In this document: positions 5,201-47,249 of the stretch, in pieces
Numbering within the stretch: position 1 is the first letter of the stretch
Layout of the letters: each line of letters opens with the position of its first letter
DNA from: an uncultured Methanosarcinales archaeon
Lineage (GTDB): Archaea; Nanobdellota; Nanobdellia; Woesearchaeales; GW2011-AR9
Length of the DNA: 64,000 nt
Direction: 5' to 3'
NCBI GenBank assembly: GCA_964344285.1
Contig: CAYFMM010000004.1
Coordinates: 109,526 to 173,525 of the forward strand
The notes under the pieces: generated by a model
Database searches by the model: none
Told to the model about the DNA's origin: nothing
The model's input: only the letters and a program-made list of their open reading frames with translations
Translations under genes and position numbers: made by a program

Positions 5201-5730
5201 CTAGCAAAGAAAGAATTAAAGATTGATAAATGTAGTGGTTTAATCCCTGTAAGGTCATTAATTAAAGAGGCCAAAGACTTTCGAACTCTTTCTTCTGGTT
5301 CTCCTTTACTTCCTTTAATTACTCTATGGGCCATATTTTGCACTGCTGTGGGGTTAGTTCCTTCATATGCAACTCTTTGTAGTTGTGCATTTGGTGTGTC
5401 ATTAGCCTCCTGAACAGCCAACTCGTATAATCTAACTAACGCATCTCCTAAGTCGTAAGGGTCAGTCTTAGACTCTACTAATCCTCTAACATCAACTTTT
5501 CCTGCATACATATCATCTTCAAGAATAACTCTTCTTAGCTGTGGGTGGTGTCTATAACGATCTCCAGTGGATTCTCCTTGAGAAAAATAACCTCTTACAC
5601 TAGGCCCATCATCTCTTTGAGGTTGTTCTGGGAGAGGTCCTTTCCTCCTTAGCATTGCCTGATGTTCTCTCTCTAAATCTGCTGGAAGTAACCTCTTCAC
5701 ATCATACCTTGCCATCTCTCCTCTCAGCAC
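5182..5730 (-). CDS. Hypothetical protein
   Basis: 182-aa ORF with no recognised motif. Confidence 0.5.
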   Translation of the reverse strand: MLRGEMARYDVKRLLPADLEREHQAMLRRKGPLPEQPQRDDGPSVRGYFSQGESTGDRYRHHPQLRRVILEDDMYAGKVDVRGLVESKTDPYDLGDALVRLYELAVQEANDTPNAQLQRVAYEGTNPTAVQNMAHRVIKGSKGEPEERVRKSLASLINDLTGIKPLHLSIFNSFFARCCLNF

Positions 5731-5839: not shown

Positions 5840-6475
5840 ATGAAAAGCGTAAACCAAGAAGTAGCTCATTTAATTAATCAAGATATCTCATTGCAAAAAT
5901 GCTTAAAACGAGGTATTGTCAACGTACGTGGCCTGGCCCATTACCTTGTTAAAACTTTTAGCTTGCCTTATTCTTTAGATGCAGTGATCTCGGCTGTACG
6001 AAGATATGATGTGGATTCTATCTCTTTACTAACAATGACAGAGGCACAAACTGCATTTGCAAGAATGTCAGTATCCACAAAAGACAACGTAGCAATTATT
6101 ATTCTAAAAGATAAAGCGTTTCAAAAAATCTGTGAAGATTTCTTAGCAGAAAGAATGCTAAAAGAAAACGCACGTATTGTAAAATCAAAAGAAACAATCA
6201 AACTCATTGTAAGTCAAAAAGAGCTTGATAAAAAACTTTCAATTTTTAATAAAGAAAATATTATCGAAATCCGTGAAAATGTTTCTGAGTTACGACTACA
6301 ATTTCCACAAGATGCAAGTAAAATTAAAGGTATAATTGCAAGAGTTGCAAGCGAACTTGCTCTGCGTAATATCAACGTAGAAAACGTAATCTATAGTATG
6401 CCAGATGTACTACTCTATGTTACTGAAAAAAATCTTGTAGAAGCTCACAAATCATTAATGGAAATTAAAGGGTAA
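5840..6475 (+). CDS. ACT-domain-containing protein
   Basis: C-terminal KGIIARVASELALRNINV ACT-like fold; TATA box 30 nt upstream. Confidence 0.7.
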   Translation: MKSVNQEVAHLINQDISLQKCLKRGIVNVRGLAHYLVKTFSLPYSLDAVISAVRRYDVDSISLLTMTEAQTAFARMSVSTKDNVAIIILKDKAFQKICEDFLAERMLKENARIVKSKETIKLIVSQKELDKKLSIFNKENIIEIRENVSELRLQFPQDASKIKGIIARVASELALRNINVENVIYSMPDVLLYVTEKNLVEAHKSLMEIKG

Positions 6476-6990: not shown

Positions 6991-7109
6991 ACTTAAAAGA
7001 ATAATTTGCCACTTATTTAAATATTCTGTATCAAAAAACAAAACTGGACTTAAAATCAATTAAATTGACACATCCAAACCTTTTTAATCCCTAAAAACTT
7101 TCTTTTATC

Positions 7110-7955
7110 ATGCAAAACGTTTATTCTGAACAAGAATTACATACAATTATTCTTCCCTTAGCAAAAAAAATCTCAAAACTTTATAAAAAAAACAAAACAG
7201 TAATTATTGCAATTCAAGGAGGCCAAGGCACAGGTAAATCAGTTTTAAGTACATTTCTTAAGGCTTATTTATTTGGAATAGGATACAAAGTACAACGCTT
7301 CTCTATCGACGATTTTTACACTTCTGACAAACATCGCCATGGGCTAAAAAAGAAATACAAAAATAATCCTTTTTACCAAATTTCACGTGGTATGCCTGGC
7401 ACACATCGAGTTACTCTTCTTCACAAAACACTACAAAAAATAAGGAAAGGAAAAAGCTTTGACATCCCAATCTTCGACAAATCAATTCACGAAGCACATG
7501 GTGATATTTTGCCAAATTCCATTCATGTAACTGGAAGGCAGGATTTTATTTTCTTTGAAGGCTGGTGTGTAGGTATGCCAGTGGTTTCTTCAAAGTCTCT
7601 ACAAAATACTTGTAAAAAACATCGCATTAAACTCAAAATATTAGATCCTGAATTAAAGCACCACAAAATAGTTTTGCGCTACCTAAAATCCTATCAAAAA
7701 CTTTGGAAATGTATCGACTATACCATAATGCTTAAGCCAGACTCTGTTAGTTCAATCAAACAGTGGCGTAACCAACAAGAAGAAGAATTAAAACAAAAAA
7801 AAGGACAAGGTATGAGCAAAGAACAAATCAGCAACTTTGTCGAACCGTATTTGCCCTTCACATATCTTTGTTATGATAAAATTAAGCCAAATTTAAGGAT
7901 ATTAATAGATAAAACTCATCGATTTTATAAGTTAGAATCGAAAAATTCTACGTAA
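7110..7955 (+). CDS. P-loop kinase, D-glycerate 3-kinase (GLYK/Tda10)-like
   Basis: IQGGQGTGKS, SIDDFY, RGMPGTH, PIFDKS..GD, FEGWCVG. Confidence 0.75.
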   Translation: MQNVYSEQELHTIILPLAKKISKLYKKNKTVIIAIQGGQGTGKSVLSTFLKAYLFGIGYKVQRFSIDDFYTSDKHRHGLKKKYKNNPFYQISRGMPGTHRVTLLHKTLQKIRKGKSFDIPIFDKSIHEAHGDILPNSIHVTGRQDFIFFEGWCVGMPVVSSKSLQNTCKKHRIKLKILDPELKHHKIVLRYLKSYQKLWKCIDYTIMLKPDSVSSIKQWRNQQEEELKQKKGQGMSKEQISNFVEPYLPFTYLCYDKIKPNLRILIDKTHRFYKLESKNST

Positions 7956-8570: not shown

Positions 8571-9530
8571 ATGATGTTACGCTACGATGTACTTTGCATA
8601 GGCTCAGCTACAGTAGATCAATTCCTTGAAATCACACCAAAATTTTCTTCTATCAAACTAGGCGATAAAATTCTTGTAAACAATACTAAAATTCATACTG
8701 GGGGAAGTGCTACAAACGTTGCTGCAACATTTGCAAAATCAAAACTTAAAACTAAAATTTGTACAAAACTAGGAGACGATGAACACGCAGAAATTATTCT
8801 CAAAGAATTAAAAAAAATAAACGTAAAACCAATTGTTACAAACCGCAGCAAAAAAGCAACTGACTACTCAGCTCTAATCTCTTCACCTAAAGACAAAGAT
8901 CGTGTTATCTTCACACATAAAGGAGCATCACAAGACTTACTCTTTAAAGATGTAAACGTAAAAAAACTAAACGCAAAGTGGTTCTATCTTGGCAGTCTTG
9001 TAGGACCTTCTTTTAGCACAGCAAAAAAAATAGCTCAGATTGCAAAAAACAAAAAAATAAATCTTCTTTTCAACCCTTCTCTTTATCTTGCAAAAAAAGC
9101 AAAAACGTATCTTAAACCAATTTTACAGTCTACAACAACTCTAATCCTTAACAAACAAGAAGCACAAGCTCTTCTAAATACAAAAAAAACAAATGAAAAA
9201 CAGCTCCTTGTACAATTGCAAAAACTAGGTCCACAACAAGTAATAATTACCAATGCAGCAAAACCATTTTATGCACTAAACAAGAAGCAAATTTACAAAA
9301 TATTTCCTCCTAAGGTCAAAATAATAAACACTACTGGAGCAGGAGATGCGTTTGCCTCTGGTTTTCTTGCTGCAATCCTCAAAAAACATTCCTTTGCAAA
9401 GGCACTCCAACTTGGACAAGCCAACGCTTCTTCAGTAATCCAAAAACTTGGAGCAAAAAATGGTCTGATTTCAGTACAACAAGCAACACAATTTGCACAA
9501 AAACATAGAATTGAGGTGAAAGAAGTCTAA
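8571..9530 (+). CDS. PfkB-family carbohydrate kinase
   Basis: GGSATNVA and NTTGAGDAFASGF signatures. Confidence 0.93.
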   Translation: MMLRYDVLCIGSATVDQFLEITPKFSSIKLGDKILVNNTKIHTGGSATNVAATFAKSKLKTKICTKLGDDEHAEIILKELKKINVKPIVTNRSKKATDYSALISSPKDKDRVIFTHKGASQDLLFKDVNVKKLNAKWFYLGSLVGPSFSTAKKIAQIAKNKKINLLFNPSLYLAKKAKTYLKPILQSTTTLILNKQEAQALLNTKKTNEKQLLVQLQKLGPQQVIITNAAKPFYALNKKQIYKIFPPKVKIINTTGAGDAFASGFLAAILKKHSFAKALQLGQANASSVIQKLGAKNGLISVQQATQFAQKHRIEVKEV

Positions 9531-13147: not shown

Positions 13148-13759
13148 ATGGCAAAAAAAACTACAAAAAAGAAATCTGACGTGGCAGCAGTGACTGAAAC
13201 CACTTCAGAAAAAACTGAAAACAAAACCAAAAAAAAGCTTGTAATGGGAATTTTAGCAGGAGAACGTGTAATTACAGAATCTTCTGACGAAGCAAGAGAA
13301 TTCTATAATCAAAGCAGATTTGGTGCAATGGCTGATAATGGCAAAGTTGAACTATCTCTATTAGAAGCACTCTATCTAATGGAAAAAGGAAGATTAACTA
13401 TTAAGAGTGAAGCTGGAAGAAAAGTAACCTTTGAATCCTATGTCAAAAAAGCACGTAAAATTGAACCTAATTTTTGGATTAGATATTCTGTGTTCAAAGA
13501 CATGCGTAACCGTGGATACATTATCAAAACAGCTCTTAAATTCGGAGCAGACTTTAGAGTCTATGACAGGGGTGTAAAACCTGGTGAAGATCACGCACGT
13601 TGGATTGTCTTTCCAGTACATGAAGGAAGTGTGTACACATGGCACGAGTTCTCAGCAAAGAATCGGGTAGCACATTCAACAAAAAAGAAACTTTTGTTAG
13701 GTATTGTAGACGACGAAGGAGATGTGACCTACTACCAAGTTTCTTGGATAAGACCCTAA
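13148..13759 (+). CDS. endA: tRNA-intron (BHB) endonuclease, single catalytic subunit (alpha4-like size)
   Basis: LSLLEALYL, KTALKFGADFRVYDRG..EDHA, NRVAHSTKK (Y/H/K triad), C-terminus WIRP. Confidence 0.96.
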   Translation: MAKKTTKKKSDVAAVTETTSEKTENKTKKKLVMGILAGERVITESSDEAREFYNQSRFGAMADNGKVELSLLEALYLMEKGRLTIKSEAGRKVTFESYVKKARKIEPNFWIRYSVFKDMRNRGYIIKTALKFGADFRVYDRGVKPGEDHARWIVFPVHEGSVYTWHEFSAKNRVAHSTKKKLLLGIVDDEGDVTYYQVSWIRP

Positions 13760-14862
13760 ACAAGAGCCCAAATAACCTTATTTTTGTAACCTTTTTTTAC
13801 AATTTCATTTTCTTGAAATAACCTGTTAAGGTGAGGTGTAACGCCATTCATTGTAAACAAAAGCTCGTTTGCAAAATCTCTAGTAGTTAATTCTCTATAT
13901 TCTAAAAGAGAAAAGATTTTTTGTTCAATCAAAATAGGGTTCCTAGTTCTAAATATTCTAGATTTTGTTTCGATCATCTTTTGTAAATTAAATTTCTTAG
14001 TTGGATGTTTTAATGGAATTAATCTTTTGAAAAAAGGAAGACTTTTAGATCTGACGTTTAATGATACTTTATCTTTTCCTTTTGAGGAAAATATTGAAAT
14101 TTTACCTGTCTCAATATTTAACGTGCACAACAATTCTTTAACTTGTTTCATTAAACTAAGAGAATGGATTGTTAAAACAGCCCCTTTTGAAACTGAGCCA
14201 TCATCATCAAACAAAGCGGCAATAAATGCAGCTTTACACTCAACTGTTGAAGTAAATATTTTTTGAGGGATTCTATTTGGATGTGTAATTTGGAAATCAA
14301 AAACACCTTGAATTATATCTGTGATTACCTTTGGAAACTCAATAATGTATGTTGAATGTGTTTTTCTTTCTCTACTTTCAAATTCTCCAAACATATTCAA
14401 TGAATTGCTAAAATTTTTTCTTAATAGTGCTTCTGAATTAGCATAATATGGGGTATGGTGCCCAGATTGACAACCATCGGCAATAAGATGTCCTATTATA
14501 GAATATAACTTGGGAGTTTCTAGTAATGGTAGTTTTGGTAGATTAACTGGAGTTCCTGCTCTTACTCTAATCTTAATAATCTGTTTTTCAAGCTTTAACT
14601 TTTCTTCTTTACTGATATAAGTGATAATTTTTTTTAATAATTTATTTGGTATATATTGGACATATTCTTTGCCATTTTTCTTGAATTTGGCGCAATGGTA
14701 TTTTCTAAAGCCCTTTGGCTCTTCTTCAATTTCTAAACAAAATTTTCTTCTTGAGCCGAATCTTTTGTACAATCTTTCAAGTAACTTAATTCTAAATTCA
14801 TCCTCAATAAGTACATAAATACTATCTGGAAAATCCCAAATATGCCACTCTCGCAAAGCCAT
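13756..14862 (-). CDS. Free-standing double-motif LAGLIDADG endonuclease with C-terminal HTH-like segment
   Basis: IIGHLIADG and FIAALFDDDG motifs; no intein splicing residues at the ends. Confidence 0.85.
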   Translation of the reverse strand: MALREWHIWDFPDSIYVLIEDEFRIKLLERLYKRFGSRRKFCLEIEEEPKGFRKYHCAKFKKNGKEYVQYIPNKLLKKIITYISKEEKLKLEKQIIKIRVRAGTPVNLPKLPLLETPKLYSIIGHLIADGCQSGHHTPYYANSEALLRKNFSNSLNMFGEFESRERKTHSTYIIEFPKVITDIIQGVFDFQITHPNRIPQKIFTSTVECKAAFIAALFDDDGSVSKGAVLTIHSLSLMKQVKELLCTLNIETGKISIFSSKGKDKVSLNVRSKSLPFFKRLIPLKHPTKKFNLQKMIETKSRIFRTRNPILIEQKIFSLLEYRELTTRDFANELLFTMNGVTPHLNRLFQENEIVKKGYKNKVIWALV

Positions 14863-23933: not shown

Positions 23934-24779
23934 CTACTTTCCTCGAAATCCTTTACTTGCCTTCTCACTCCAAAAACTAGGTAAACTATTTTGCACAAAA
24001 CCTCTAAAAGAATCAGCGTAAATATACGTAAGCCCAACAGTTCCTTTTAATTCTTTAAAATCCTCTTTTACTTCTACATAGACTTCTTTAATCTTCTTTC
24101 GCTCAAAATCTTTTTGTAACAATGAGCTTGGTTTTAAAATCAAATAATCAGCTTGCCTAATTGCATTAATCTCTAAATTGCTACTATTTTGTGTGATAAA
24201 AATAACACTCAAATCTTTATGCCGTGCAATTAAAAGTAACTCTGATAATAACTTATTCGGATTACTCATCGCATTACGACTACTAAATGTAATTCCACCT
24301 TCATCAATCAACACCACACTATCATTATGGATGTCTTCAATCTCTTCTACTACTTTAATCCAATCTGGCACTGCCTCTTCTTGAAAACCTAACGCATACA
24401 CTTTTTTATTACCCTTTACTTTAAAATTTTCAAGCAGTCTCATCCCAATCGCGCTCTTGCCAGTTCCTCTAGCTCCCAAAATAATTCCGATGGTGCTAGA
24501 GCTCTTATACAATTTTCTCTCGAAATTTTCAACTTTTCCTTCAATTGCTTTTACAACCTTAAATGCATCATATTCTGCCTCTACTTTTGGCTTTTTCTCC
24601 TGAATTTTTTTCTTCGAACGCTTTTTTTGCACACCCACAATTTTATGTTTTGTCCAATAATAAATTAATTGTACTACAAAAGAAATTGCTTTAATAGGAT
24701 AAAGAATTAAAATTTTAAAAATCCACTTTAACGTTTCCTTAACAATTCGCACAAGCTTCTTTTTAGTTCGCTTTTTCAT
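23934..24779 (-). CDS. Membrane-anchored P-loop ATPase (Zot/HerA-like)
   Basis: ILGARGTGKS Walker A, VVLIDEG Walker B, ARHKDL..FITQ; N-terminal hydrophobic segment. Confidence 0.75.
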   Translation of the reverse strand: MKKRTKKKLVRIVKETLKWIFKILILYPIKAISFVVQLIYYWTKHKIVGVQKKRSKKKIQEKKPKVEAEYDAFKVVKAIEGKVENFERKLYKSSSTIGIILGARGTGKSAIGMRLLENFKVKGNKKVYALGFQEEAVPDWIKVVEEIEDIHNDSVVLIDEGGITFSSRNAMSNPNKLLSELLLIARHKDLSVIFITQNSSNLEINAIRQADYLILKPSSLLQKDFERKKIKEVYVEVKEDFKELKGTVGLTYIYADSFRGFVQNSLPSFWSEKASKGFRGK

Positions 24780-31362: not shown

Positions 31363-31791
31363 ATGATGGCTAAAAAAGTTGTAAGAAAAGCCGCTCCTAA
31401 GAAAAAAGCTGTGAAAAGAGCACCTGCAAAAAAGAAGGTAGCAGCTAAGAAAAAGGTAGTGGCAAAGAAGAAAGTCGCAACAAGAAAGAAGGTGGCTACA
31501 CGTAAAAAAGCAGCTGTTAAGAAAAAGGCTCCTGCAAAGAAAAAAGCAGCAGCAAAAAAGAAACCAGCAGCAAAGAAAAAAGTAGCAGCTAAAAAGAAAC
31601 CAGCGGCAAAGAAAAAAGCTCCTGCAAAGAAAAAAGCGGCAGCAAAAAAGAAAGTAGCAAAGAAAAAAGTTGTTAAGAAAAAGGCAGTTGCAAAGAAAAG
31701 AACAGCAGCAAAAAAGAAAACTGCAGCAAAGAAAAAAGCACCAGCTAAAAAGAAAGTAGCTAAGAAAAAAACAACTAAGAAAAGAAGATAA
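31363..31791 (+). CDS. Histone H1-like / Hc2-like Lys-Ala-rich protein
   Basis: Almost entirely KKK/A/P/V/T repeats (PAKKKAAAKKK); SD GAGGTG; mixed synonymous codons. Confidence 0.85.
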   Translation: MMAKKVVRKAAPKKKAVKRAPAKKKVAAKKKVVAKKKVATRKKVATRKKAAVKKKAPAKKKAAAKKKPAAKKKVAAKKKPAAKKKAPAKKKAAAKKKVAKKKVVKKKAVAKKRTAAKKKTAAKKKAPAKKKVAKKKTTKKRR

Positions 31792-36943: not shown

Positions 36944-37582
36944 ATGAAAAAGATTTTTTTACCCTTACTTTTACTCTCAGTACTTTTTATTGCAGCATGC
37001 ACAACACAACAAGAAGTGCAAATGCAAGAGCAACACATGGAAGAATCAATGGAAGTCATGGAAGAAAAGATAGATGCAATGCAAGAAAAAAATGAAGAAG
37101 AAATGCAAGAAACAACAGAAAAACCAACATCTTCAGATAATAACCTTCCTCTTTGGATGACAGCGCAGCTCACAGACGTTAATACTCAAGAGACATTTAT
37201 AATAGAGGAAATTGCACAAGAAAAACCAGTTCTACTTGAAAGCTTTGCAGTATGGTGTCCTAAATGTACATCACAACAAAAAGAAACAAAAGCACTTCAC
37301 GAAGAAATCGGTGACACTGTACATTCCATTGCACTTAACACTGATCCAAACGAGGACGCAGCAAAAGTAATTGAACATACTCAGCGTTTTGGCTTTGATT
37401 GGACCTATGCAATCTCGCCTAAAGAAGTAACACAAAACCTTATTGATGAATTTGGGGTTGGTATTGTAAACGCACCGGCTGTTCCCATGGTTTTAATTTG
37501 CTCACCAACGCAGTCAAGAATGCTTAGTCGTGGTGTAAAGTCAGTAGATAAACTCAAAGCAGAAATCAAGGCAGGGTGTTAA
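36944..37582 (+). CDS. Thioredoxin-like (TlpA-type) lipoprotein
   Basis: Lipobox IAAC, FAVWCPKC, APAVP. Confidence 0.85.
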   Translation: MKKIFLPLLLLSVLFIAACTTQQEVQMQEQHMEESMEVMEEKIDAMQEKNEEEMQETTEKPTSSDNNLPLWMTAQLTDVNTQETFIIEEIAQEKPVLLESFAVWCPKCTSQQKETKALHEEIGDTVHSIALNTDPNEDAAKVIEHTQRFGFDWTYAISPKEVTQNLIDEFGVGIVNAPAVPMVLICSPTQSRMLSRGVKSVDKLKAEIKAGC

Positions 37583-37583
37583 A

Positions 37584-38261
37584 ATGGTAAGCATGCTTGT
37601 TAATTTTTGGTTATCCTTTCTTGCAGGACTCTTTGCTCCACTGGGCGCAGTCTGTGTTTTACCGTTGTATCCTGGGTTTCTTTCATATTTAGCAAGCAAA
37701 ACATCTACAGATAGTTCTAAGAAAACAATTATCATGTATGGTGTAATTGTTGTACTTGGCGTTCTCTCCTCTATGCTTTTAATTGGGCTAATCTTTTCAA
37801 CAATTCTTAAAGCATCACTCACAAAAGCAATTGGCATTATCTCACCGATTGCCTTTGGCATTTTAGCAATCATTAGTCTACTCTTAATCTTTAATGTAGA
37901 CATCACTCGTTTTTTACCAAAACTAAACGCACCAGTTCTTAAAAATCCTTACTTTAGTGCGTATGTCTTTGGATTTTTATTTGGTGCAATTGTACTTCCT
38001 TGCAATCCAGCATCACTCGCAGTTTTATTTGCAGTAAGCACATCAACAGTTAGCTTCATTACAAATTTCATCAACTTTATGCTTTTTGGCTTAGGGATGG
38101 GGCTACCTCTCTTGATTTTAGCATTCATCTCTGCAGCTAAAAGTCAACAAGTGATTGGCTTTTTAACAAAACAAAAAAGATTAATTAATCTAATTGCAGG
38201 AATCATAATGCTTGGTATTTCAATATATTACCTTGTATTTGTATTTCGCATCTTTGGGTGA
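37584..38261 (+). CDS. ccdA: CcdA/DsbD transmembrane electron-transfer protein
   Basis: AVCVLPLYPGFLSY and LPCN; six TM helices. Confidence 0.88.
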   Translation: MVSMLVNFWLSFLAGLFAPLGAVCVLPLYPGFLSYLASKTSTDSSKKTIIMYGVIVVLGVLSSMLLIGLIFSTILKASLTKAIGIISPIAFGILAIISLLLIFNVDITRFLPKLNAPVLKNPYFSAYVFGFLFGAIVLPCNPASLAVLFAVSTSTVSFITNFINFMLFGLGMGLPLLILAFISAAKSQQVIGFLTKQKRLINLIAGIIMLGISIYYLVFVFRIFG

Positions 38262-39346
38262 AAAAAATGAAAAAAAAGAATTATTTATTATTTACAACAA
38301 TTGCAATTGTTTTGCTTTTTGTAGTCAGTTGCCAAACACCACAACATACTGATGATGCTACACAAGACAATCCACCTACAACAGAATCTGACACACCAAC
38401 TGATTTTGAGCAAAACCCAGGTGCAACACCTCTTTTAGATGGAGAGATTCAAACAACTAGCGATGGCACAAAATATATTGTAAATCCAAATGAGATTCTC
38501 TCTGGAGGTCCTCCAAAAGGAGGCATTGGTTTTGATCGAGGAATTCCTGCTTTGGCAGAAAAAAACATTGACTTTGTGACGGTACAAGTTGCAGATAAGT
38601 GGATACAAGACCAAGAATTAGTACTTGCATTACAATATGATGGCGTAAAAAGAGTATATCCTCTGCAAATTTTAGTCTTTCATGAAATTGTTAACGATGA
38701 AATTAATGGTCTACCAATTTTAATTACCTATTGCCCACTCTGCGGTTCAGGCATTGCCTATGAACGCACAATTGAACTAAATGGGCAAAAAGTTGCAACA
38801 CGCTTTGGAACGTCAGGCAAACTCTATAACTCTAACTTAGTAATGTATGATGAATCAACAGACACTTATTGGCAACAAATTGATGGTAAAGCAATTGTTG
38901 GCAAGCTTACAGGTCAAGAACTCAACAAAATATCTATTGACACTGTTGCTTGGCGCGATTGGAAAAAAGCTCATCCGGAATCTGAAGTGTTATCACAGAA
39001 AACAGGTATGAATCGCCCATATGGAAATGACCCTTACCCAGGATACTATGAAAACTCATTTCTCTTTTTTCCGGTAGACAATGAAGATAATTCAATTCAC
39101 CCTAAAACAGTAATCTTTGGCACTGAAGTTGGCGGTGTGTACAAAGCATATCGAGAGGAAGATTTGCTTGAAACTCCTATCATTAAAGATGTGGTCAATG
39201 ACGTTAATATTGTTGTGGAGCGAGGAGATGATGGTGTTGTAAAAATTATAAATCAGCAGACAGGGGAAGAAATTGTCAAAGAACGCGACTTTTGGTTCGC
39301 TTGGTATGCATTTCATCCTAATACGCAATTATATGGTGCACAATGA
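38258..39346 (+). CDS. DUF3179-family lipoprotein
   Basis: Lipobox VVSC, SGGPPK..GIPA, ITYCPLCGS, SGKLYNSNLVMYD..T.TYW.Q, FWFAWYAFHP. Confidence 0.88.
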   Translation: MKKMKKKNYLLFTTIAIVLLFVVSCQTPQHTDDATQDNPPTTESDTPTDFEQNPGATPLLDGEIQTTSDGTKYIVNPNEILSGGPPKGGIGFDRGIPALAEKNIDFVTVQVADKWIQDQELVLALQYDGVKRVYPLQILVFHEIVNDEINGLPILITYCPLCGSGIAYERTIELNGQKVATRFGTSGKLYNSNLVMYDESTDTYWQQIDGKAIVGKLTGQELNKISIDTVAWRDWKKAHPESEVLSQKTGMNRPYGNDPYPGYYENSFLFFPVDNEDNSIHPKTVIFGTEVGGVYKAYREEDLLETPIIKDVVNDVNIVVERGDDGVVKIINQQTGEEIVKERDFWFAWYAFHPNTQLYGAQ

Positions 39347-39531
39347 AATATCCTTTGCATACCAAGTGTCACGAACGTAACGAGGTGGAGTGACTTTGAC
39401 GCGTGGTACGCTTTCCACCCTAATACACAACTCTATCAACAAACTAATCAACAATAAGTGCCACGTGTCCCGAATGATAATGAGGATATGCGTGGTATGC
39501 ATTTCACCCTAACACTAAAATATATGGCTGA
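39299..39531 (+). repeat. Three diverged copies of the DUF3179 3' end (AWYAFHPNT.[LI]Y) separated by hairpins
   Basis: Copies start at 39299, 39401 and 39490; differences are mostly synonymous. Confidence 0.85.
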
Positions 39532-39575
39532 GCCCTTTCAAAAGACTTAAATAATCTCTTGTACTATCTGTGAAT

Positions 39576-39878
39576 ATGTTAACTAAAGAAAAAATTATAC
39601 ACAAAATTGAACAAAATAAAGATAAAATAAAATCTTTTGGTGTAACTAAATTAATTTTGTTTGGCTCTTATGTTCACGGGACACAAAAAGAAAATAGTGA
39701 TATTGATTTATTAGTAGAATTTGACGATGGGAGGGGTTTATTTAATGATTATGTTCATCTACTTCATTTGTTGGAAGATTTATTCAAGAAAAAAATTGAT
39801 TTAGGTGAAGAGAAATTATTGAGAGAAGAATTAAAGCCTTATATCTTAGGGGGAGAAAAAATTGAAGCGAAGATTTGA
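39576..39878 (+). CDS. Minimal nucleotidyltransferase (MNT antitoxin)
   Basis: LFGSYVHG..SDIDLLVEF; TATA box 30 nt upstream of this ATG. Confidence 0.92.
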   Translation: MLTKEKIIHKIEQNKDKIKSFGVTKLILFGSYVHGTQKENSDIDLLVEFDDGRGLFNDYVHLLHLLEDLFKKKIDLGEEKLLREELKPYILGGEKIEAKI

Positions 39879-40209
39879 TTTATACCTTAAAGATGTTCTT
39901 AACGCCATAGAAAATGTTAAAGAGTACATTGGAGATCTTGATGTTGAAGATGTTTTAAAGGACCGTTTAAGAACCGACGCTATTCTACGTAATCTTGAGA
40001 TTATAGGTGAAGCTGTATCGCAACTACCAAAAGAAATCAAAGAAAAATATAAAGAAATCCCTTGGAGGGATATTAAGGATTTTAGAAACGTAGTTGCACA
40101 CCGCTATTGGAAGATTAATTTGGCTAGAATAGTTGATATTATTGAAAACAAACTGGATTCTCTTAAACAGAAAGTAGAGAACATTCTTATTAAAGAAAAA
40201 GATGCCTAA
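39862..40209 (+). CDS. HEPN (DUF86) ribonuclease toxin
   Basis: DAILRNLEIIGEA, IPWRDIKDFRNVVAHRY (RX4H). Confidence 0.93.
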   Translation: MKRRFDLYLKDVLNAIENVKEYIGDLDVEDVLKDRLRTDAILRNLEIIGEAVSQLPKEIKEKYKEIPWRDIKDFRNVVAHRYWKINLARIVDIIENKLDSLKQKVENILIKEKDA

Positions 40210-40831
40210 ACAAAAAATCAATAAAAATCATTTTAGAGTTGCAATCTTTGGTTCAGCAAGAACTAAACGCAATGACCCAGAATACAAAAAAATTGAAAAA
40301 TTAGCACAACTGATTGCAGAAGAAAACATTGATGTTGTAACAGGAGGAGGGCCAGGTCTAATGGATGCTGCAAGTCGTGGTCATCACAAAGGTAGAAAAA
40401 AAGGTAATCATGCTCACTCACTAGGTCTTACAATTAAACTTCCTCACGAGCAACATGATGGATATCATTTAGATGTCAAAGAAGACTTTGCAAAATTTTC
40501 AGGAAGATTAGATAAATTTATGCAACTCTCAAATGTGGTGGTTGTAGCTCCCGGTGGAATTGGCACAATTTTAGAATTTTTCTACACTTGGCAACTTATT
40601 CAAGTCAAACAAACCTGTGAAATCCCAATTATTATGGTGGGGTCAATGTGGAAAGGACTAATTGACTGGGTAAAAAAACAACCCTTAAGAAAAAAACTTC
40701 TCAACAAAGAAGATTTAAAGACAATTTACTTTACAAACACAAACGCACAAGCAATGAAAATTATTATGGAAGCAAAAAAGAGCTTTGAATCTGGTGAGCA
40801 TGTTTGCAGGAATATTGAAAAGTACAAGTAA
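40202..40831 (+). CDS. LOG-family protein (YgdH/PpnN-like)
   Basis: FGSAR, TGGGPGLM, PGGIGTILE. Confidence 0.9.
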   Translation: MPKQKINKNHFRVAIFGSARTKRNDPEYKKIEKLAQLIAEENIDVVTGGGPGLMDAASRGHHKGRKKGNHAHSLGLTIKLPHEQHDGYHLDVKEDFAKFSGRLDKFMQLSNVVVVAPGGIGTILEFFYTWQLIQVKQTCEIPIIMVGSMWKGLIDWVKKQPLRKKLLNKEDLKTIYFTNTNAQAMKIIMEAKKSFESGEHVCRNIEKYK

Positions 40832-41027
40832 GAATTTTTAAAAGAGAGTAATTTTGGTTATGTCACGTCGGTACATTTATGCTTAAGTGAAACTATTCTC
40901 TTTTTCTTATCTTGTCTTTAGCCTGGCTACCTATTGCCTCCCAGGTGCAAGAAGTACAATATTTTTGATAATATACTGCCCTTTTAGTGTTAACACAAAT
41001 TAAGAATTAAAAAAAAATAAGAAAAAT

Positions 41028-41585
41028 TTATCTTTTCTTTTTCTTTGTAGCCTTTTTAGCAGGTTTCTTTTTTGTTGTTACTCTCTTCTTCGCTGCCTTC
41101 TTTTTCACTACTTTTTTCTTTGTAGCCGCCTTTTTCTTTGCAGGAGCTTTCTTTTTGGTAACTTTCTTCTTGCTTGTAGCCTTCTTTGCTGGTTTCTTTT
41201 TTGCTGCTGCTTTTTTCTTCACAGGTTTTTTTGCAACCTTCTTAACTGCTTTCTTTTTAGCGGGAGCCTTTTTCTTCGCTGTTGCTTTCTTCTTTGTAGC
41301 CACTTTTTTTGCAGTCTTTTTCACAACAACTTTTTTTGTAGGCTTAGCAACCTTTTTAGTGCCAACTGCCTCTTGTAATGCTTTAGGGTCAAATCCTACT
41401 AAAATTTTATCTTTAACCTCAATTACTGGAACGCCCATCTGTCCTGACTTTTCAATCATTGCATCTCGCGCCTTTACATCAACAGAAACATCATACTCCT
41501 TAAACGCAACATTGTTCTTTTTCAAAAACTCCTTTGTTTTAGCACACCATGGGCATGTTGGTGTAGTATATATTTTAATTGCCAT
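41028..41585 (-). CDS. Glutaredoxin (NrdH/YruB-like, CPWC) fused to a histone-H1-like Lys/Ala tail
   Basis: IYTTPTCPWC..SGQMGVPVI..VGFD, then about 110 aa of KKPAKK-type repeats. Confidence 0.88.
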   Translation of the reverse strand: MAIKIYTTPTCPWCAKTKEFLKKNNVAFKEYDVSVDVKARDAMIEKSGQMGVPVIEVKDKILVGFDPKALQEAVGTKKVAKPTKKVVVKKTAKKVATKKKATAKKKAPAKKKAVKKVAKKPVKKKAAAKKKPAKKATSKKKVTKKKAPAKKKAATKKKVVKKKAAKKRVTTKKKPAKKATKKKKR

Positions 41586-41743
41586 TTCTAATCACCTTCT
41601 TTTTTAATTAAACTATAATCACAATATTATTTGATTTATCTTAACCATACTTTCTAAATTTATAACTCTTTTGTTTTTCTTTGAACCCTACAAACAAAAA
41701 TTTATTAACTCCAACTTGTACTCTTTACAAAAAGAGGTTATCC

Positions 41744-43201
41744 ATGACAAAAAACTTAACTAACAAAAAGAAAAATTCTCTATCTCGTAATTCTAAAACT
41801 ACAAAAAAACCAAAACAATATGACGTAATAGTTATCGGTTCAGGTGGCGGCACAAAAATTGCATCACCTGCCTATCAACTAGGAAAAAAAGTAGCAATCA
41901 TTGAAGAAGCAAAATTAGGTGGGACTTGTCTTAACCGAGGTTGTATTCCTTCTAAAATGCTAATCCATCCAGCAAATGTTGCAACAATTATCAAAGATGC
42001 AAAAAAATTTAACATCAATGCAACATTTAGTTCAGCAGACATACAAAAACTTCTCAAACGAATTAACAAAGAGACAGATGGTGATTCTAAAAGTATTGAA
42101 ACATGGTATAAATCCCGTAAAAACTTTGGATATTACCATGGACACGCAGAATTTATTTCAGATAAAATAATCAAAGTAAATAATCAACTTCTCACTGCAA
42201 AAAAAATCTTTATTGCTACTGGTGCAAGACCTTTTGTTCCTCCAATCCCAGGACTAAAAGAGACTCCATTTATGACAAGCACACAAGCTCTAAGAAGTAG
42301 AACACTTCCTAAAAAGCTCCTTGTAATCGGAGGCGGATATATTGCGTGTGAGCTAGGCTACGCTTACTCAGCTTTGGGCTCAGAAGTTCACTGGTTGGTA
42401 CGAGACAAAGCTCTCCTTCGAAGAGAAGACGCTCAAGTTAGTCAAACTTTTACCAAAATCTTTGCTAAAAACCATAAAGTTCACTTTAACACAAATACTA
42501 CAAACGTATCTTACAACAAAAAAACAAAACAATTCACATTAACTCTAGAAACAACAAAGGGCAATCAAAAAATAAAGAAAAGACTAGTTGGTGATGCTCT
42601 TTTAGTTGCAACTGGAGTAAAACCAAATTCTGAGCTGCTTGGATTAGAAAACACTTCTATTAAAACTAATAAACGCGGTTTTATTAAAGCAAATTCTTAT
42701 CTTCAAACAACAGTAAAAGATGTCTATGCTCTTGGTGATGTTGTTGGCAATTACATGTTTCGCCATTCTGTAAACTTTGAAGGAGAATATCTTTTTAACG
42801 AACATTACTATAAAAAAGGAAAAATTACACCCATCAAATATCCTCCAATTCCTCATGCGGTTTTTACACACCCCGAAATTGCTGGTGTTGGTCTAACTGA
42901 AGAACAACTTCAAGAGAAAAAAATTCCTTATGTGGTTGGATTTAATCCTTACAAAAAAAGTGCGATGGGATCAGCTAGGCTTAGCAAAGATGAATTTGTC
43001 AAATTATTATTCCATAAAAAAACAAGAAAACTTCTTGGTGCACATATCTTGGGTGAAGAAGCGTCTAACATGGTTCATCTTTTAATTTATGCAATAACCA
43101 ATGGTGCAACAGCTGATAGCTTACTTAACATGATTTATATTCATCCAGCCCTGCCAGAAATTGTACGAAATGCGGTAAGAAATGCAATGGAAGAATTTTA
43201 A
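41744..43201 (+). CDS. Flavoprotein disulfide reductase (dihydrolipoamide dehydrogenase / mycothione reductase family)
   Basis: GSGGG, GGTCLNRGCIPSK, IGGGYIACE, YALGD, HPALPE; SD GAGGT. Confidence 0.9.
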   Translation: MTKNLTNKKKNSLSRNSKTTKKPKQYDVIVIGSGGGTKIASPAYQLGKKVAIIEEAKLGGTCLNRGCIPSKMLIHPANVATIIKDAKKFNINATFSSADIQKLLKRINKETDGDSKSIETWYKSRKNFGYYHGHAEFISDKIIKVNNQLLTAKKIFIATGARPFVPPIPGLKETPFMTSTQALRSRTLPKKLLVIGGGYIACELGYAYSALGSEVHWLVRDKALLRREDAQVSQTFTKIFAKNHKVHFNTNTTNVSYNKKTKQFTLTLETTKGNQKIKKRLVGDALLVATGVKPNSELLGLENTSIKTNKRGFIKANSYLQTTVKDVYALGDVVGNYMFRHSVNFEGEYLFNEHYYKKGKITPIKYPPIPHAVFTHPEIAGVGLTEEQLQEKKIPYVVGFNPYKKSAMGSARLSKDEFVKLLFHKKTRKLLGAHILGEEASNMVHLLIYAITNGATADSLLNMIYIHPALPEIVRNAVRNAMEEF

Positions 43202-43498
43202 AGGTCATTTTTCTTAACAATTGTTGTAATTATTTGCATTAGGTATTCTAATGGGTCTCCCTCAATTTCACGTAGTGAAGTTTTTCTGTGTCCTTCTTCT
43301 GGTCTAGCAAATAATCTTTTGGGTGCCATCTGTAAACTCAACACTACTGCCATAACTATCTCCGCTTGGACATGTGCCCCTACAATAAACGTATTCAACC
43401 GAAACTCCAGCATATTCTCTAGTCCCATCTAATAACCCTTGATATAATTCATCATTACCAGGACAACTTTCACATACTAAAACTTGTAATTTACTCAT
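43198..43498 (-). pseudogene. Probable frameshifted Cys-motif protein (thioredoxin-like ferredoxin?)
   Basis: VLVCESC..YCRGTC ORF stops at 43304. Removing one A from the run at 43317-43320 joins it to the 43198 frame, giving 99 aa. Confidence 0.45.
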
Positions 43499-43552
43499 AA
43501 AACAAAAACTAATCTGTTCCATTAAAAACTTTATGACAAAAAATAAAGAAAA

Positions 43553-43786
43553 TTAATAACTATAAGAACACCAACATTGCCCTTGATTGATCTCTTCATT
43601 AAATTCACACAATGCTTCTCCTTTTGGAATATTTGGATTTTCATGATAGCAATTTACGTTCTTACAATCCTTGTCTTCCAAACACAAACTGCCCTCTTCT
43701 GCGACATAATCCTTGTTAAACAAGCATCCACTTAGTAAAAATAAACTTGTAATTAAAACAACTCCAATCAGTAATTTAGTTTTCAT
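43553..43786 (-). CDS. Small Cys-rich lipoprotein
   Basis: MKTKLLIGVVLITSLFLLSGC lipobox, then six more Cys residues. Confidence 0.7.
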   Translation of the reverse strand: MKTKLLIGVVLITSLFLLSGCLFNKDYVAEEGSLCLEDKDCKNVNCYHENPNIPKGEALCEFNEEINQGQCWCSYSY

Positions 43787-43787
43787 T

Positions 43788-44027
43788 TTACAAATTCTCC
43801 TCAATATATGCAATGATATCTGCAGACTCACCGATCCACTTGCCATCGATATTAATGACTGGCACAGTTCCAACACCGCTCTTCTCTGCAATCTCTTTTC
43901 GTTGTACATCTTCCCTATCGTGGGAAACATTCACTTTTTCATACTCAAGTCCCTTTGCATCTAAAACACTTCTCACTCTTGCACAAAAGGGACACGTTTC
44001 AAATTGATATAATATTATCGTTGCCAT
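43788..44027 (-). CDS. Glutaredoxin-like protein
   Basis: LYQFETCPFC..GTVPVI..WIGESADII. Confidence 0.92.
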   Translation of the reverse strand: MATIILYQFETCPFCARVRSVLDAKGLEYEKVNVSHDREDVQRKEIAEKSGVGTVPVINIDGKWIGESADIIAYIEENL

Positions 44028-44099
44028 AAAATTACAAAAGATTAAGTCTATATAAGGATTATGAAAATGTTTTTAAATTGAAAATACTTCATAATTATT

Positions 44100-44366
44100 A
44101 TGACATCACTTGAAAAAATTAAAAATGAGATTACAAAAATACAACAACGAAACGAGCGTGTGGAATTGGATAAAGCATGGGAAACAAGTGTCACACGAAA
44201 AATACTTGTTGCAGTTTTAACGTATTTTGTAGTGGTGCTCTTTTTTTATGGAGCGGGTTTACCAAAACCGTTTTTAAACTCCCTTGTGCCTACAACAGGG
44301 TTCATACTTTCTACGCTCTCTTTGCCTTTTTTTAAACGAATCTGGGAAAAATACAAGAAAAAATAA
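44100..44366 (+). CDS. Small membrane protein, unknown function
   Basis: RVELDKAWETS..; two hydrophobic segments. Confidence 0.65.
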   Translation: MTSLEKIKNEITKIQQRNERVELDKAWETSVTRKILVAVLTYFVVVLFFYGAGLPKPFLNSLVPTTGFILSTLSLPFFKRIWEKYKKK

Positions 44367-44377
44367 AAAAACTAAAC

Positions 44378-44764
44378 TTAGTTTTCTTTAACTGCTACTG
44401 CTCCAGGACCACTGAAATACACACTAACAAGCCCGGTGATTGCTAAGATGTGGAACAACAAGTTAATCATGCCCATCGGTTGACTTAAGTTTGGAATAAC
44501 CATCATTACCGTTGCAACAACCATAATTACAATTAGTGGCCAAACAGTGTATTTTGTTTTCCATCCAGCAAGTAATGCTGCACCAAAGACAATTTCTGCA
44601 AGAAGCACAATCCACGTAAGACCCGCTCCAATCATGCCTGCAAGCATATGTCCGCCTCCAAGCATTCCAAATAACTTATCGAGGCCTGGGATTACAAATA
44701 GTAAACCTAGTCCTAAACGTAATACAGATGGTGCATACGCCCGACAATCACATTTTTCTTTCAT
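44378..44764 (-). CDS. DoxX-family membrane protein
   Basis: LRLGLGLLF..G.DK, EIVFGAALLAG, GPGAVAV. Confidence 0.88.
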   Translation of the reverse strand: MKEKCDCRAYAPSVLRLGLGLLFVIPGLDKLFGMLGGGHMLAGMIGAGLTWIVLLAEIVFGAALLAGWKTKYTVWPLIVIMVVATVMMVIPNLSQPMGMINLLFHILAITGLVSVYFSGPGAVAVKEN

Positions 44765-44934
44765 TTTCTTTTTCCTCCTTAAACTAAATGATTTTGTAGT
44801 GAAAAGCACCTTGTGCAAACCACTCTAACTAACAAAACACTTCCCAACAACTAAATATGTATCTTATTATCATTCAAACAAAATTTTGATAAACAAGAAT
44901 AAATTTTATATAAGCTCAGACAAAAAATAACATT

Positions 44935-45576
44935 ATGGGATACACAGTCATTGCTCCAGTAGGGGATAATTTAGATGCCCTTTTTGTGGGTATGAAGGAA
45001 TTTGCAACAGAACAAGTTTACTTAATTACGCCAAGTAACAACCTACGCAAAGCAAAAAAACTAGAAAAAAAACTTCAAATATTTTCAATTCCAGTAATCA
45101 TCAAAGAAATGAAAGAAGGTCTTATGGAATCTATGTTCTACCAATTTGGTAAGATCTGTGAATCACACTCTGAAGAAGAAATCATTGTAAACGTTGCAAC
45201 AGGAGACAGACTTAGTTCATGTGCAGCACTAAGTGCAGCATTTGCAAACGGTCTAAAAGCATTTGGGATAATGGGTGGTAAACCAATGCTTCTGCCTATC
45301 ATGAAACTTTCGTATTACAATGAGCTTACTGATAGCAAATTTAAAATTCTCACAAATCTTGTAAAAGAAGATTATACTTCACTAAAAGACTTAAGTAAAG
45401 CAACAGGGCTCTCTATCTCTTTACTTTCTTACCATCTTAATGGAACACTTAAATATAAAGGATTGCTTAACCTGCGTTTAGTAGAAGTAAAAGAGCAAAA
45501 CAAAAACTTGCTTGTAAAACTCTCTGATTTGGGTAGTCTATTACTCAAGGGATATATTAGTTGTGAGAAAAAATAA
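44935..45576 (+). CDS. DUF6293/HFX_2341-like regulator (CARF-like Rossmann domain plus wHTH)
   Basis: VIAPVG..VYLIT..IVNVATGDR, then SLKDLSKATGLSISLLSYHL. Confidence 0.7.
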   Translation: MGYTVIAPVGDNLDALFVGMKEFATEQVYLITPSNNLRKAKKLEKKLQIFSIPVIIKEMKEGLMESMFYQFGKICESHSEEEIIVNVATGDRLSSCAALSAAFANGLKAFGIMGGKPMLLPIMKLSYYNELTDSKFKILTNLVKEDYTSLKDLSKATGLSISLLSYHLNGTLKYKGLLNLRLVEVKEQNKNLLVKLSDLGSLLLKGYISCEKK

Positions 45577-45636
45577 GACATAACAAAAATTAAAGACAAC
45601 AAAATCTTTATTAACTCTTATCACTTCCTTTACTCT

Positions 45637-46527
45637 ATGAAAAAGGCAAAGATGTCGTGGGTTGTACTTTTGTTTATGGTTCTTGGGATAATTGGGATCA
45701 TTACTTCTGGTTACTTATTAAAAAGTCACTTAGACACATCAGCAGCAGGTTCTTTTTGTGATATCACAGAAGCTGCATCTTGTTCAATTGTAAACTCAAG
45801 TTCTTTTTCTAAACTCCTTGGTGTGCCAGTGGCAGCCCTAGGGATATTGTGGTTTGTATTCTTCATGGTTTTAATGGCAAGACAATGTTCAATGCACAAA
45901 AACAAAACAGTACAAGAAAAAGTCAATAATGTAAAAGCACTCTTTTTATGGAACCTACTTGGTTTAATTTCGGTAATTTATCTTATTATTGGAGAAATTA
46001 TCATCCGAGCAATCTGCCCACTATGCACAATCGTACATATAATTATCTTACTTGCGCTAGTGTATTCTTTTATTGAATATAAAAAACTTACAACTAAAGA
46101 CAAAAAATACTCTTTAACATTTTTTAAACAATACAAAACTCTCCTCTTCATCTTTGTAATCCTTACAATCGCAACATTCGTTTTTTTCAATCTTCCAGAA
46201 AAAGAAACTCAAGATTATACTGAATTGACGCAATGTGTAACTGACAATGGAGTTAGCATGTATGGTTCTTTTAGGTGTGCTATATGTACAAAAACAAGAG
46301 CAATGCTTGGAGATGCATTTGAAAATATTAACGAGATAGAATGTCATCCACAAGGAGAAAACGCACAAACAGAACTATGTCTTTCAAAAGGAATTGAGGC
46401 GACTCCTACCTGGATTTTAGAACCTAACGGGCCAAATGGAGAAGAACTCAAACGGCATGTTGGCTTTCTTACAGTAGAAGAACTAGCTGATTTTGCAGGT
46501 TGTCAAGACACACTTGATACAAAATAA
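45637..46527 (+). CDS. VKOR fused to a thioredoxin-like domain
   Basis: FCDI..SCSIVNSS..LLGVPVA, ICPLC, then MYGSFRCAIC..IECHP..TPTW. Confidence 0.92.
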   Translation: MKKAKMSWVVLLFMVLGIIGIITSGYLLKSHLDTSAAGSFCDITEAASCSIVNSSSFSKLLGVPVAALGILWFVFFMVLMARQCSMHKNKTVQEKVNNVKALFLWNLLGLISVIYLIIGEIIIRAICPLCTIVHIIILLALVYSFIEYKKLTTKDKKYSLTFFKQYKTLLFIFVILTIATFVFFNLPEKETQDYTELTQCVTDNGVSMYGSFRCAICTKTRAMLGDAFENINEIECHPQGENAQTELCLSKGIEATPTWILEPNGPNGEELKRHVGFLTVEELADFAGCQDTLDTK

Positions 46528-46532
46528 TTACA

Positions 46533-47249
46533 ATGACGTTACCACAAGGATTAACAATCCCTATCTTGGTTGGAGCAGCACTTCTTGACAGTATCAACCC
46601 TTGTGTGTTTGGTGTGTTAATCTTTCTTATTGCCTTTATGACAAAACTCTACAAAAGCCCAGGGAGAATGCTTTTAGCAGGAGCAATTTATACAATTGTT
46701 GTTTATCTTACATACTTTTTTATTGGTGTAGGATTCCTTAAGTTTACGGTCTCTTTTGGCTTCTCTCAGATAGTGTACTGGATTGCAGCAATTATTGCTA
46801 TTATTGCAGGGCTTTTAGAAGTTAAAGACTTCTTTTGGTACGGAAAAGGATTCAGTTTACAAATGGTCCCTGGAGCTGCTCAAAGAATTAAGATGTACAC
46901 ACAACGTCTTAAAAAAATTCATAGCAAAAATCCAAGCCTAAGTTATCTTGCAGCTGGTTTACTTGGGATTTTTGTTGTACTTGTAGAGCTTCCCTGTACT
47001 GGTGCTCCCTATTTGGCTGTTCTTGCAATCCTTGGTCAGGGTAATTACACTGAAGGAATCCCCTTACTCTTGCTTTATAATCTTATTTTTATCCTTCCAT
47101 TATTCATTATCATTGTAGTAGCATACTTTGGAAAGTCCTCTAAAAAACTTGAAGCATGGCGTAAAAAGCACCGTGGTGTGATGCGACTTGCAACTGGATT
47201 ATTCCTTATTGCGCTTGGGGCATTTATGCTTTATTACATTACTGTGTGA
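46533..47249 (+). CDS. CcdA-like transmembrane thiol-disulfide protein
   Basis: DSINPCVF and VELPCTGAPY. Confidence 0.85.
   Translation: MTLPQGLTIPILVGAALLDSINPCVFGVLIFLIAFMTKLYKSPGRMLLAGAIYTIVVYLTYFFIGVGFLKFTVSFGFSQIVYWIAAIIAIIAGLLEVKDFFWYGKGFSLQMVPGAAQRIKMYTQRLKKIHSKNPSLSYLAAGLLGIFVVLVELPCTGAPYLAVLAILGQGNYTEGIPLLLLYNLIFILPLFIIIVVAYFGKSSKKLEAWRKKHRGVMRLATGLFLIALGAFMLYYITV

Follow-up and report, generated by a model that had tools for sequence, protein, structure and literature searches.

We analysed a stretch of 64,000 nt (hereafter the window; positions 109,526 to 173,525 of contig CAYFMM010000004.1, assembly GCA_964344285.1) from an AT-rich DPANN archaeon (GC of the window ~34%), in which an array of repeated gene ends lies behind a gene of the DUF3179 family. 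This gene (38258..39346, plus strand; Pfam PF11376, E=2.9e-86; start placed by gene callers at 38267) is the final gene of an operon with the order Trx-like protein, CcdA (CcdA/DsbD_TM), DUF3179. Its product bears a lipobox-like N-terminus (LLFVVSC) and a CPLC redox motif, and the closest named homologues of the protein come from Pacearchaeota, Woesearchaeota and Nanoarchaeota. At its 3' end the gene encodes FWFAWYAFHPNTQLYGAQ, followed by the stop codon. The sequence FWFAWYAFHPxTxLY with a short variable tail forms the C-terminus in 120/120 listed homologues; judging from these sequences, the AWYAFHPNTxxY motif is the true C-terminus of the family.

The end of the DUF3179 gene is present three times on the plus strand. 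Copy 1 (AWYAFHPNTQLYGAQ + TGA, 39299..39346) is the end now in use; it is followed by a displaced end, copy 2 (AWYAFHPNTQLYQQTNQQ + TAA, 39401..39457), and by the most distal copy 3 (AWYAFHPNTKIYG + TGA, 39490..39531). All three were recognized from repeat and pattern matches and from their translation. A degenerate coding pattern (TGGTAYGCNTTYCAYCCNAAYAC) matches the 64 kb exactly at these three copies (39299-39336, 39401-39438 and 39490-39527, the latter two 74% and 84% identical to the first), with 0.01 matches expected. Between the copies lie two further elements on the same strand, a short arm and a core. Arm 1 (TGCATACCAAG, 39356..39366) is an 11/11 reverse complement of 39300-39310, the start of copy 1, to which it is also joined in the minimum-free-energy fold; with copy 2 it forms merely 8 Watson-Crick pairs and 1 G.U pair of 12. 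Core 1 (39367..39400), composed of TGTCACGAACGTAACGAGG and then TGGAGTGACTTTGAC, is an atypical long variant with a GTCAC/GTGAC inner stem (match to the covariance model R1, introduced below: 39351-39414, 44 bits), and its GACTTT stretch resembles the DF codons of the DUF3179 gene. Arm 2 (GTGCCACGTGTC, 39458..39469), identified by sequence and fold, forms 10 Watson-Crick and 2 G.U pairs with GACGCGTGGTAC in the opening bases of copy 2, and core 2 (TCCCGAATGATAATGAGGATAT, 39468..39489) is of the consensus type, its unit matching the model at 39450-39503 (69 bits, E=8e-16) with a hairpin z-score of -3.2. Neither an arm nor a core lies 3' of copy 3, which by analogy with another locus (L012, see below) would be the native end of the gene.

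An earlier prediction made from the letters of the window (hereafter the original prediction) had described three coding-type copies of AWYAFHPNTxxY, differing mainly at third codon positions, and had placed the two arms where we find them. These claims stand: the pairwise differences between the copies, counted at the first, second and third codon position, are 1, 0, 7; 2, 0, 4; and 2, 0, 6. The shared core that it proposed is present as well, but its two versions differ by a 1-nt insertion or deletion and the ungapped pattern matches only once. Copy 2 happens to be in frame with the DUF3179 gene across a single TGA (39344-39457), and a protein made by read-through would be 37 residues longer and bear the C-terminal motif again; this position is probably a coincidence, because the frames differ in other arrays. 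Translation of the distal copies was rejected, as they share no conserved start and an in-frame copy 2 occurs only in the window. A likeness between the core and the upstream VKERDFWF codons (GTC..GAACG) is suggestive in the first half alone; having been spotted post hoc, it was given no weight.

As far as assemblies can show, the array is authentic. The Logan assemblies of runs ERR2281800 and ERR2281801 have 0 mismatches to the window across the array, and since these are identical assemblies of two separate runs, the array is not a chimera of one assembly. Such a chimera, in which alleles of different strains are collapsed into a false tandem, was the alternative set beforehand against the original prediction. 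It could draw on the contig L002 (one Logan assembly), which breaks off at the end of copy 3 (at 39530, one base short of 39531), and on the contigs L022 and L024, which break inside their arrays. The break in L002, before the toxin-antitoxin (TA) gene pair that follows the array, could reflect strain heterogeneity at the junction or only low coverage. Against a chimera stand the two independent assemblies and the fact that the same architecture, including its specific non-coding arm and core, is found in unrelated metagenome-assembled genomes and metagenomes (16 loci from different studies); moreover, alleles would not carry conserved non-coding hairpins along. We therefore give an assembly artefact practically no chance. 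A wider query returned, from three runs, a single 156-nt contig that lies downstream of the array.

The other loci come from two scans. A scan of GTDB, with one genome per species, for two such gene ends 60-90 nt apart identified 7 loci with tandem copies behind DUF3179, all of DPANN type, and a metagenome scan for a core end joined to a copy revealed 9 further contigs with arrays behind DUF3179. After deduplication they represent ~12 DPANN lineages, in which the number of copies ranges from 2 to at least 5 and the period is 76-102 nt. The DUF3179 host proteins of the arrays are 50-73% identical to one another and the cores are near-identical, TCCCGAACGAAGTGAGGATAT for instance being present in L013 and L025 alike. 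An all-against-all comparison of the open reading frames (ORFs) of the 16 loci revealed only one thing common to them, the Trx / CcdA / DUF3179 operon. Relatives with a single gene end also exist: three of them (P0007, P0092 and P0010) have no arm or core in the downstream sequence scanned, and a fourth (P0053) has a short downstream gap with no core according to a regular-expression scan only. In L016 (minus strand) the DUF3179 frame is broken upstream of CPLC by many in-frame stops, with the array behind it intact; this gene is either a pseudogene or the result of an assembly frameshift. The structure is real, recurrent and so far undescribed: in the library that we searched, the literature on DUF3179, DPANN integration sites, MITEs (transposable elements of the miniature inverted-repeat kind) and archaeal integrons yielded no description of it.

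The units have a common anatomy. Two copies are always separated by the stop codon of the first, a spacer of 0-17 nt, the arm and the core, which abuts the next copy, and the last copy of an array has no arm or core after it. The units are 76-102 nt long and hold just the last 14-19 codons of DUF3179 and no ORF; the arm and the core alone, ~35-55 nt together, separate the copies in every unit. The arm, ~9-14 nt, is complementary to GCNTGGTAYGC, i.e. to the start of a copy. The core, 20-30 nt, has across genomes the consensus (T)CCCGAAYG, a short variable hairpin, and RTGAGGATAT. The original prediction had paired each arm with the copy that follows it. Our comparison of 13 units shows that the arm covaries with the copy that precedes it (87.2% of cells paired, covariation 0.31, reached by 0/500 shuffles, versus 80.1%, 0.18 and 45/500 shuffles for the next copy). 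The pairing with the preceding copy is maintained at synonymous sites (GCN in 13/13 units, TAY in 12/13), and among the units whose neighbouring copies differ, 7 have an arm with a better fit to the preceding copy and 1 an arm that fits both equally well; window unit 2 alone has an arm that fits the next copy slightly better (7+2 versus 7+3 pairs). Thus, because the arm covaries with the preceding copy, the heritable unit consists of the copy, its stop codon, the arm and the core, in this order.

The earlier pairing with the following copy nevertheless holds in part, as the hairpin that it implies does fold and its inner helix covaries. The arm, the core and the start of the next copy form a compact hairpin of ~54 nt with an outer stem of ~13 bp, a 2-nt bulge on the 3' side, a CC/GG step, a CGA/GA internal loop and, at the tip, a mini-helix of 2-3 bp closed by a loop of variable length (at least 3 nt). 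Over 17 units 92.8% of the cells of this hairpin are paired, with two-sided changes at 7 pairs (0/500 shuffles do as well), while slid controls gave 20-48% pairing. The inner-helix pairs covary in 4/4 cases (e.g. AC/GU, AU/AU and GAU/AUC). Folding of nine hairpins gave z-scores of -2.5 to -5.6 for 7 of them, and no such value for the remaining two, window unit 1 and L014 unit 1. The frequent G.U pairs suggest that the hairpin works on the sense strand of the gene, as RNA or as single-stranded DNA. We built a covariance model (R1) from the units. Comparison of the window with Rfam 15 gave no match at the gathering score and only chance-level local matches at E<=10, and the hammerhead, the K-turn, the bulge-helix-bulge intron and the C/D-box, checked by hand, did not fit the sequence. 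DUF3179 has been described as a selenoprotein family in some prokaryotes (PMC9312934). The archaeal selenocysteine insertion sequence (SECIS) was rejected as an identity of the hairpin: every array-bearing gene retains the Cys residues of CPLC and lacks an in-frame UGA, and instead of the SECIS pairing with its GAA/A internal loop the covariation supports the mini-helix flanked by CGA/GA.

The copies diverged as genuine gene ends rather than as debris. The patterns used for collecting the loci forced coding matches in the first six codons, hence only the five codons outside the patterns were tested, and there 40/70 differences fall at the third position (p=4e-5). Amino-acid changes in the copies sit where real homologues also vary, and the distal tails (ELYEVK, TLYEK, SVYGVESLA and others) resemble real termini of the family. 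Decay in place would have loaded positions 1 and 2; the copies therefore diverged while still functioning as gene ends, be it in other lineages or at an earlier time in the lineage of the window. In outline this fits the original prediction, which had regarded the copies, apparently taken from homologues, as scars of repeated site-specific integration or exchange, inasmuch as they behave as former functional, coding-constrained ends stacked behind a conserved gene. The order of events is indicated by L012, in which a SelR/MsrB gene (msrB) starts within the end of the distal copy, its ATG and the stop codon of that copy overlapping as ATGA. As ATGA is a typical native operon junction, the distal copy of L012 is the original one and the unit was inserted before it. 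The state of the arms shows a gradient too, the proximal arms being perfect (11/11 in the window) and the distal ones degraded, and the copy that closes the array of L014, its fourth, is decayed. In L010 and L013 the closest relatives share residues with the distal and not with the proximal copy, which weakly backs the distal copy as the native one.

Duplication within arrays is also evident. L024 and L022, both from one sample, contain at least 5 almost identical 95-nt units. The array of L014 (6955-7240) has the arrangement A-B-A'-B': its third copy is nearly identical to the first, and two consecutive cores are followed by a decayed fourth copy that carries a deletion and shares ACACTTCGGTT with copy 2, so that this array reflects the duplication of a block and subsequent decay. 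Neighbouring heads in L010 and in L015 match at 35/35 positions, and their tails are unrelated. Identical units, the A-B-A'-B' pattern and homogenized heads together imply that arrays also grow and are homogenized by duplication and conversion.

A possible relative of the core was found outside the arrays. A palindromic element of 91 nt begins 8 nt past the last copy in L010 and L019 (L010:~80-175; L019:7590-7681, minus strand), and L010 carries a second copy of it (6040-6125); the two copies covary in every stem. The element has A/T-rich outer stems and a GC-rich interior composed of GGCCAGGCGAG, a hairpin, CGAGTAGGAT, a hairpin and GTCCGTCTGTGCC. In contigs from four marine metagenome runs it reaches a coverage of 140-900x versus ~10-20x for its flanks, and it occurs with many different flanks and in tandem forms; it has no match in Rfam or among viral contigs. 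Its interior reads CGAG-hairpin-CGAGTAGGATAT, to be compared with CGAG-hairpin-CGAGGATAT in the unit cores of L010/L019 and CGAA..GTGAGGATAT in other genomes. From base composition we roughly put the probability that the core and the 91-nt element match in this way by chance in the L010/L019 locus at ~3e-4. This hints at a core module that dispersed hairpin repeats also contain, and hence at a common trans-acting factor serving both. The window itself has no dispersed repeat family. In L022 an orphan core-like hairpin (GGTCCGAACGAAAGTGAGGA, preceded by CCGAGCCGAAGGCGAG; 5575-5635) lies in an intergenic promoter region 8.7 kb from the array; its match to the model is weak (15.6 bits, E=0.2), and it may be due to chance or belong to a related dispersed family. 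The same contig has small repeats around a TATAACATCGCGC..TGTTAT hairpin at 7090-7125 and 9445-9500.

As the best-supported reading, we propose that the arrays arise by serial insertion of an ORF-less, end-replacing cassette at the junction of the FWF and AWYA codons, supplemented by block duplication; in our judgement the case for this scenario is about evenly balanced. A unit of 76-102 nt would be inserted repeatedly at one point, between the FWF and AWYA codons, and would bring with it a replacement end (AWYAFHPxTxLY, a short tail and a stop codon), a spacer, an arm complementary to its own end and a structured core. Insertion would leave the protein intact and shift the previous end downstream; since each insertion displaces the earlier end, the most distal copy would be native and the proximal unit the youngest, and block or tandem duplication would add further copies. 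The units presumably move between lineages. The hairpin formed by the arm, the core and the start of a copy could be the single-stranded substrate of a trans-acting enzyme. Its geometry is like that of an integron cassette, in which attC closes, once the circle is excised, on the first bases of the cassette itself. An excised circle of the unit would join the core to the head of the same unit and would thus require the complementarity of arm and own head that we observe; within an array the arm would close on the head that follows, with a poorer fit. As a double-stranded circle of ~90 bp is implausible, we assume a single-strand hairpin substrate and an enzyme acting in trans. Taken a step further, the arrays might represent a new class of minimal site-specific mobile DNA, a ~90-nt ORF-less cassette with a hairpin whose stem copies its target, homing to the conserved last codons of one gene, surviving because it brings a working replacement end, and mobilized in trans by a DPANN enzyme acting on single-stranded hairpins; this we put forward as a tentative idea that is probably too bold. 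Related hairpin modules may populate other intergenic regions of DPANN genomes.

A number of observations weigh against serial insertion of a mobile cassette. The original prediction expected an integrase or HUH enzyme linked to the motif, but Pfam and PHROGs searches with the 56 ORFs of at least 90 aa between 12.6 and 57 kb of the window identified no integrase/recombinase, transposase, HUH enzyme or reverse transcriptase (RT), nor is any recombinase common to the 16 array loci. A double-stranded circle of ~90 bp would be too small for ordinary integrases, which obliges us to assume a single-strand route. Neither a free or excised form nor a copy on viral, phage or plasmid DNA was found: among viral contigs, searched for a core with a copy, for tandem copies and for the core alone, there were only a coding-sequence coincidence (L035/L036) and an 18-mer hairpin at chance level (L037), and BLAST searches of phages and plasmids gave no match. 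Across the window and ~197 kb of related loci, R1 matches only units at DUF3179 ends. No whole near-identical unit is common to two lineages, only the core and the coding part being conserved, which fits long-term selection on the core as well as recent transfer. The homogenized heads of L010 and L015 show that gene conversion or unequal crossover also shapes arrays. Finally, our collection scans needed coding-type patterns and thus under-sampled decayed copies.

The main rival explanation is a cis-acting RNA element in the 3' untranslated region of the DUF3179 mRNA that needs no dedicated mobility enzyme. Here the partner of the arm would be the last codons of the ORF or else the next copy, and the hairpin of the core would serve 3'-end stability, termination or protein binding; arrays would grow by hairpin-stimulated slippage and unequal crossover, and diverged copies would enter by out-of-register recombination with foreign array-bearing alleles. 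The G.U pairs favour a transcribed sense strand, the covariation of the inner helix is RNA-like, and the arm covaries with the copy inside the gene at synonymous sites, as a selected mRNA stem would. The core is conserved while the remainder of the unit is saturated, tandem and block duplications and homogenized heads are clear, and the lack of a linked recombinase needs no explanation. Yet the arm of such a hairpin requires only the first 11-14 nt of a copy, and at least 36 nt stay coding-like; close relatives do without the element; the insertion in L012 breaks the ATGA translational coupling to msrB, which is hardly beneficial; and homologous recombination would be inefficient between lineages whose proteins are 50-73% identical. 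On balance we find the RNA element rather unlikely. A third explanation would see in the arrays the scars of large integrase-bearing plasmids or viruses that targeted the 3' end of DUF3179 and whose bodies were later deleted. Direct repeats of a 3' end with a displaced native end are indeed the classic signature of such elements, and in the window a TA pair adjoins the array. However, all units of the ~12 lineages have a length of 76-102 nt, the copies enclose no integrase remnant or cargo, no further copy is present in the 64 kb, nothing resembling a phage attachment site (attP) with a core plus a copy was found on viral, phage or plasmid DNA, and repeated precise loss of a body down to the same ~50-nt remnant is implausible, which makes this origin quite improbable.

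Least probable among the biological explanations, and in our opinion hardly credible, is that the copies are swappable C-terminal cassettes which diversify the protein, like the tips of Rhs/CdiA or the variable region of a diversity-generating retroelement (DGR). The original prediction had offered such cassettes as its second option. The partial copies do start at a conserved motif able to guide recombination and their tails differ, but the tails after the conserved Y comprise 1-9 residues with no domain and no immunity-like partner, and direct repeats can only delete, so the suggestion was dropped. A DGR was rejected in particular, as the Pfam scans revealed no RT and the differences (T/C, A/T and A/G at third positions) are not adenine-specific. 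A CRISPR array was rejected as well: its "repeats" would be diverged coding ends and its "spacers" are homologous to each other.

The surroundings of the array in the window include, directly 3' of copy 3, a TA pair of overlapping genes, MNT (NTP_transf_2) and HepT (HEPN), at 39570-40209. A TA module was correctly predicted at this place, but it is not cargo of the array, since other arrays have unrelated neighbours: the pair lies beside no other array, downstream genes differ between loci, and the pair is specific to the lineage of the window. The end of the TA pair overlaps the start of a LOG/SLOG-family gene (40202-40831). The region 36944-47249 is dense in thiol-redox genes, which besides the Trx-like lipoprotein, CcdA and DUF3179 (CPLC) include glutaredoxin, a pyridine-nucleotide disulfide oxidoreductase, DoxX, VKOR and a second DsbD-like membrane protein. 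Two genes with long Lys/Ala-rich (AKKK-type) repeats of an 18-nt period (31363-31791 and 41028-41585) account for most long repeats of the window; one of the repeat stretches is fused to the C-terminus of glutaredoxin. A tRNA-intron endonuclease gene (13148-13759) adjoins a 368-aa LAGLIDADG_3 ORF on the opposite strand (13756-14862). The ORF at 23934-24779 was matched weakly by the Pfam family "Zot" (25.6 bits), but the PHROGs matches are generic and there is no phage context, and we regard it as a generic P-loop ATPase; it is flanked by ORFs that belong to no family.

Should the units be mobile, few known site-specific elements would be as small; they would be cassettes that persist on a target-mimicking hairpin and a spare gene end alone, and they would bear on single-strand recombination of the integron or IMEX type in archaea and on gene flow in DPANN, whose mobilome is poorly known. 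If they are an mRNA element instead, they would constitute a new conserved structured RNA of ~54 nt, covarying, without an Rfam family and tied to a thiol-redox operon. Either way, the coding-looking fragments mislead gene callers and assemblers (contigs break inside arrays, so arrays trap assemblers), and the arrays record former alleles in order and could be used to trace the history of recombination.

Among known systems, integron cassettes resemble the arrays in being added serially at one point and in their imperfect hairpin with bulged bases, a variable terminal loop and a strand bias; the hairpin is completed by the start of the next unit in an array, but by the unit's own first bases when excised, with which the fit of the arm to its own copy agrees. 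Archaeal integrons, and clusters of attC sites lacking integron integrases (CALINs), have been reported in DPANN/Nanoarchaeota (PMC9668308). As a CALIN is likewise an array without a linked integrase, a missing IntI alone does not exclude an integron. Still, there is no intI nearby, the insertion point is inside a coding sequence, and one target gene is known. The attC motifs RYYYAAC/GTTRRRY are absent, and in 17/17 aligned units the arms are GCRTACCANG and CNTGGTAYGC. Instead of a promoterless ORF, units of 76-102 nt bear a replacement end only, and they do not exceed the length of a typical attC site by itself (57-141 nt).

Integrative elements that target 3' ends restore the gene from their attP and may accrete in tandem, with integrase-less forms known as cis-mobilizable elements (CIMEs), e.g. 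at the 3' end of Streptococcus fda. With these the arrays share direct repeats, a synonymously different working end, a displaced native end and the stacking of events; they differ in having no integrase, kb-scale body or cargo, the unit being equivalent to the att-like region alone, and in having a conserved covarying hairpin in place of arm-type protein sites. The single-stranded genome of CTX-phi and of other integrative mobile elements exploiting Xer (IMEX) adopts a fold with a hairpin attP, which imitates the double-stranded target. There too a stem reproduces the target, and integration is irreversible, stacks and regenerates a usable target, but in the arrays the target is a protein-coding end and not dif, and no phage genes are present.

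Repetitive extragenic palindromes and their mosaic clusters (REP/BIME) and MITEs are similar in size (~90 nt), in their GC-rich mini-hairpins within an AT-rich genome, in their position just after a stop codon and in their tandem clusters, and a related high-copy palindromic repeat, which does occur dispersed as a MITE would, adjoins the array of L019; unlike REP/BIME and MITEs, the units are confined to one locus per genome, with none elsewhere in the window, they carry a coding gene end, and their stem is set by the target gene. The orphan C-terminal modules of Rhs/CdiA also consist of stacked partial 3' copies that start from a conserved motif downstream of a full gene, whereas our arrays have tails of 1-9 residues, neither a domain nor an immunity gene, and non-coding hairpins between the copies.

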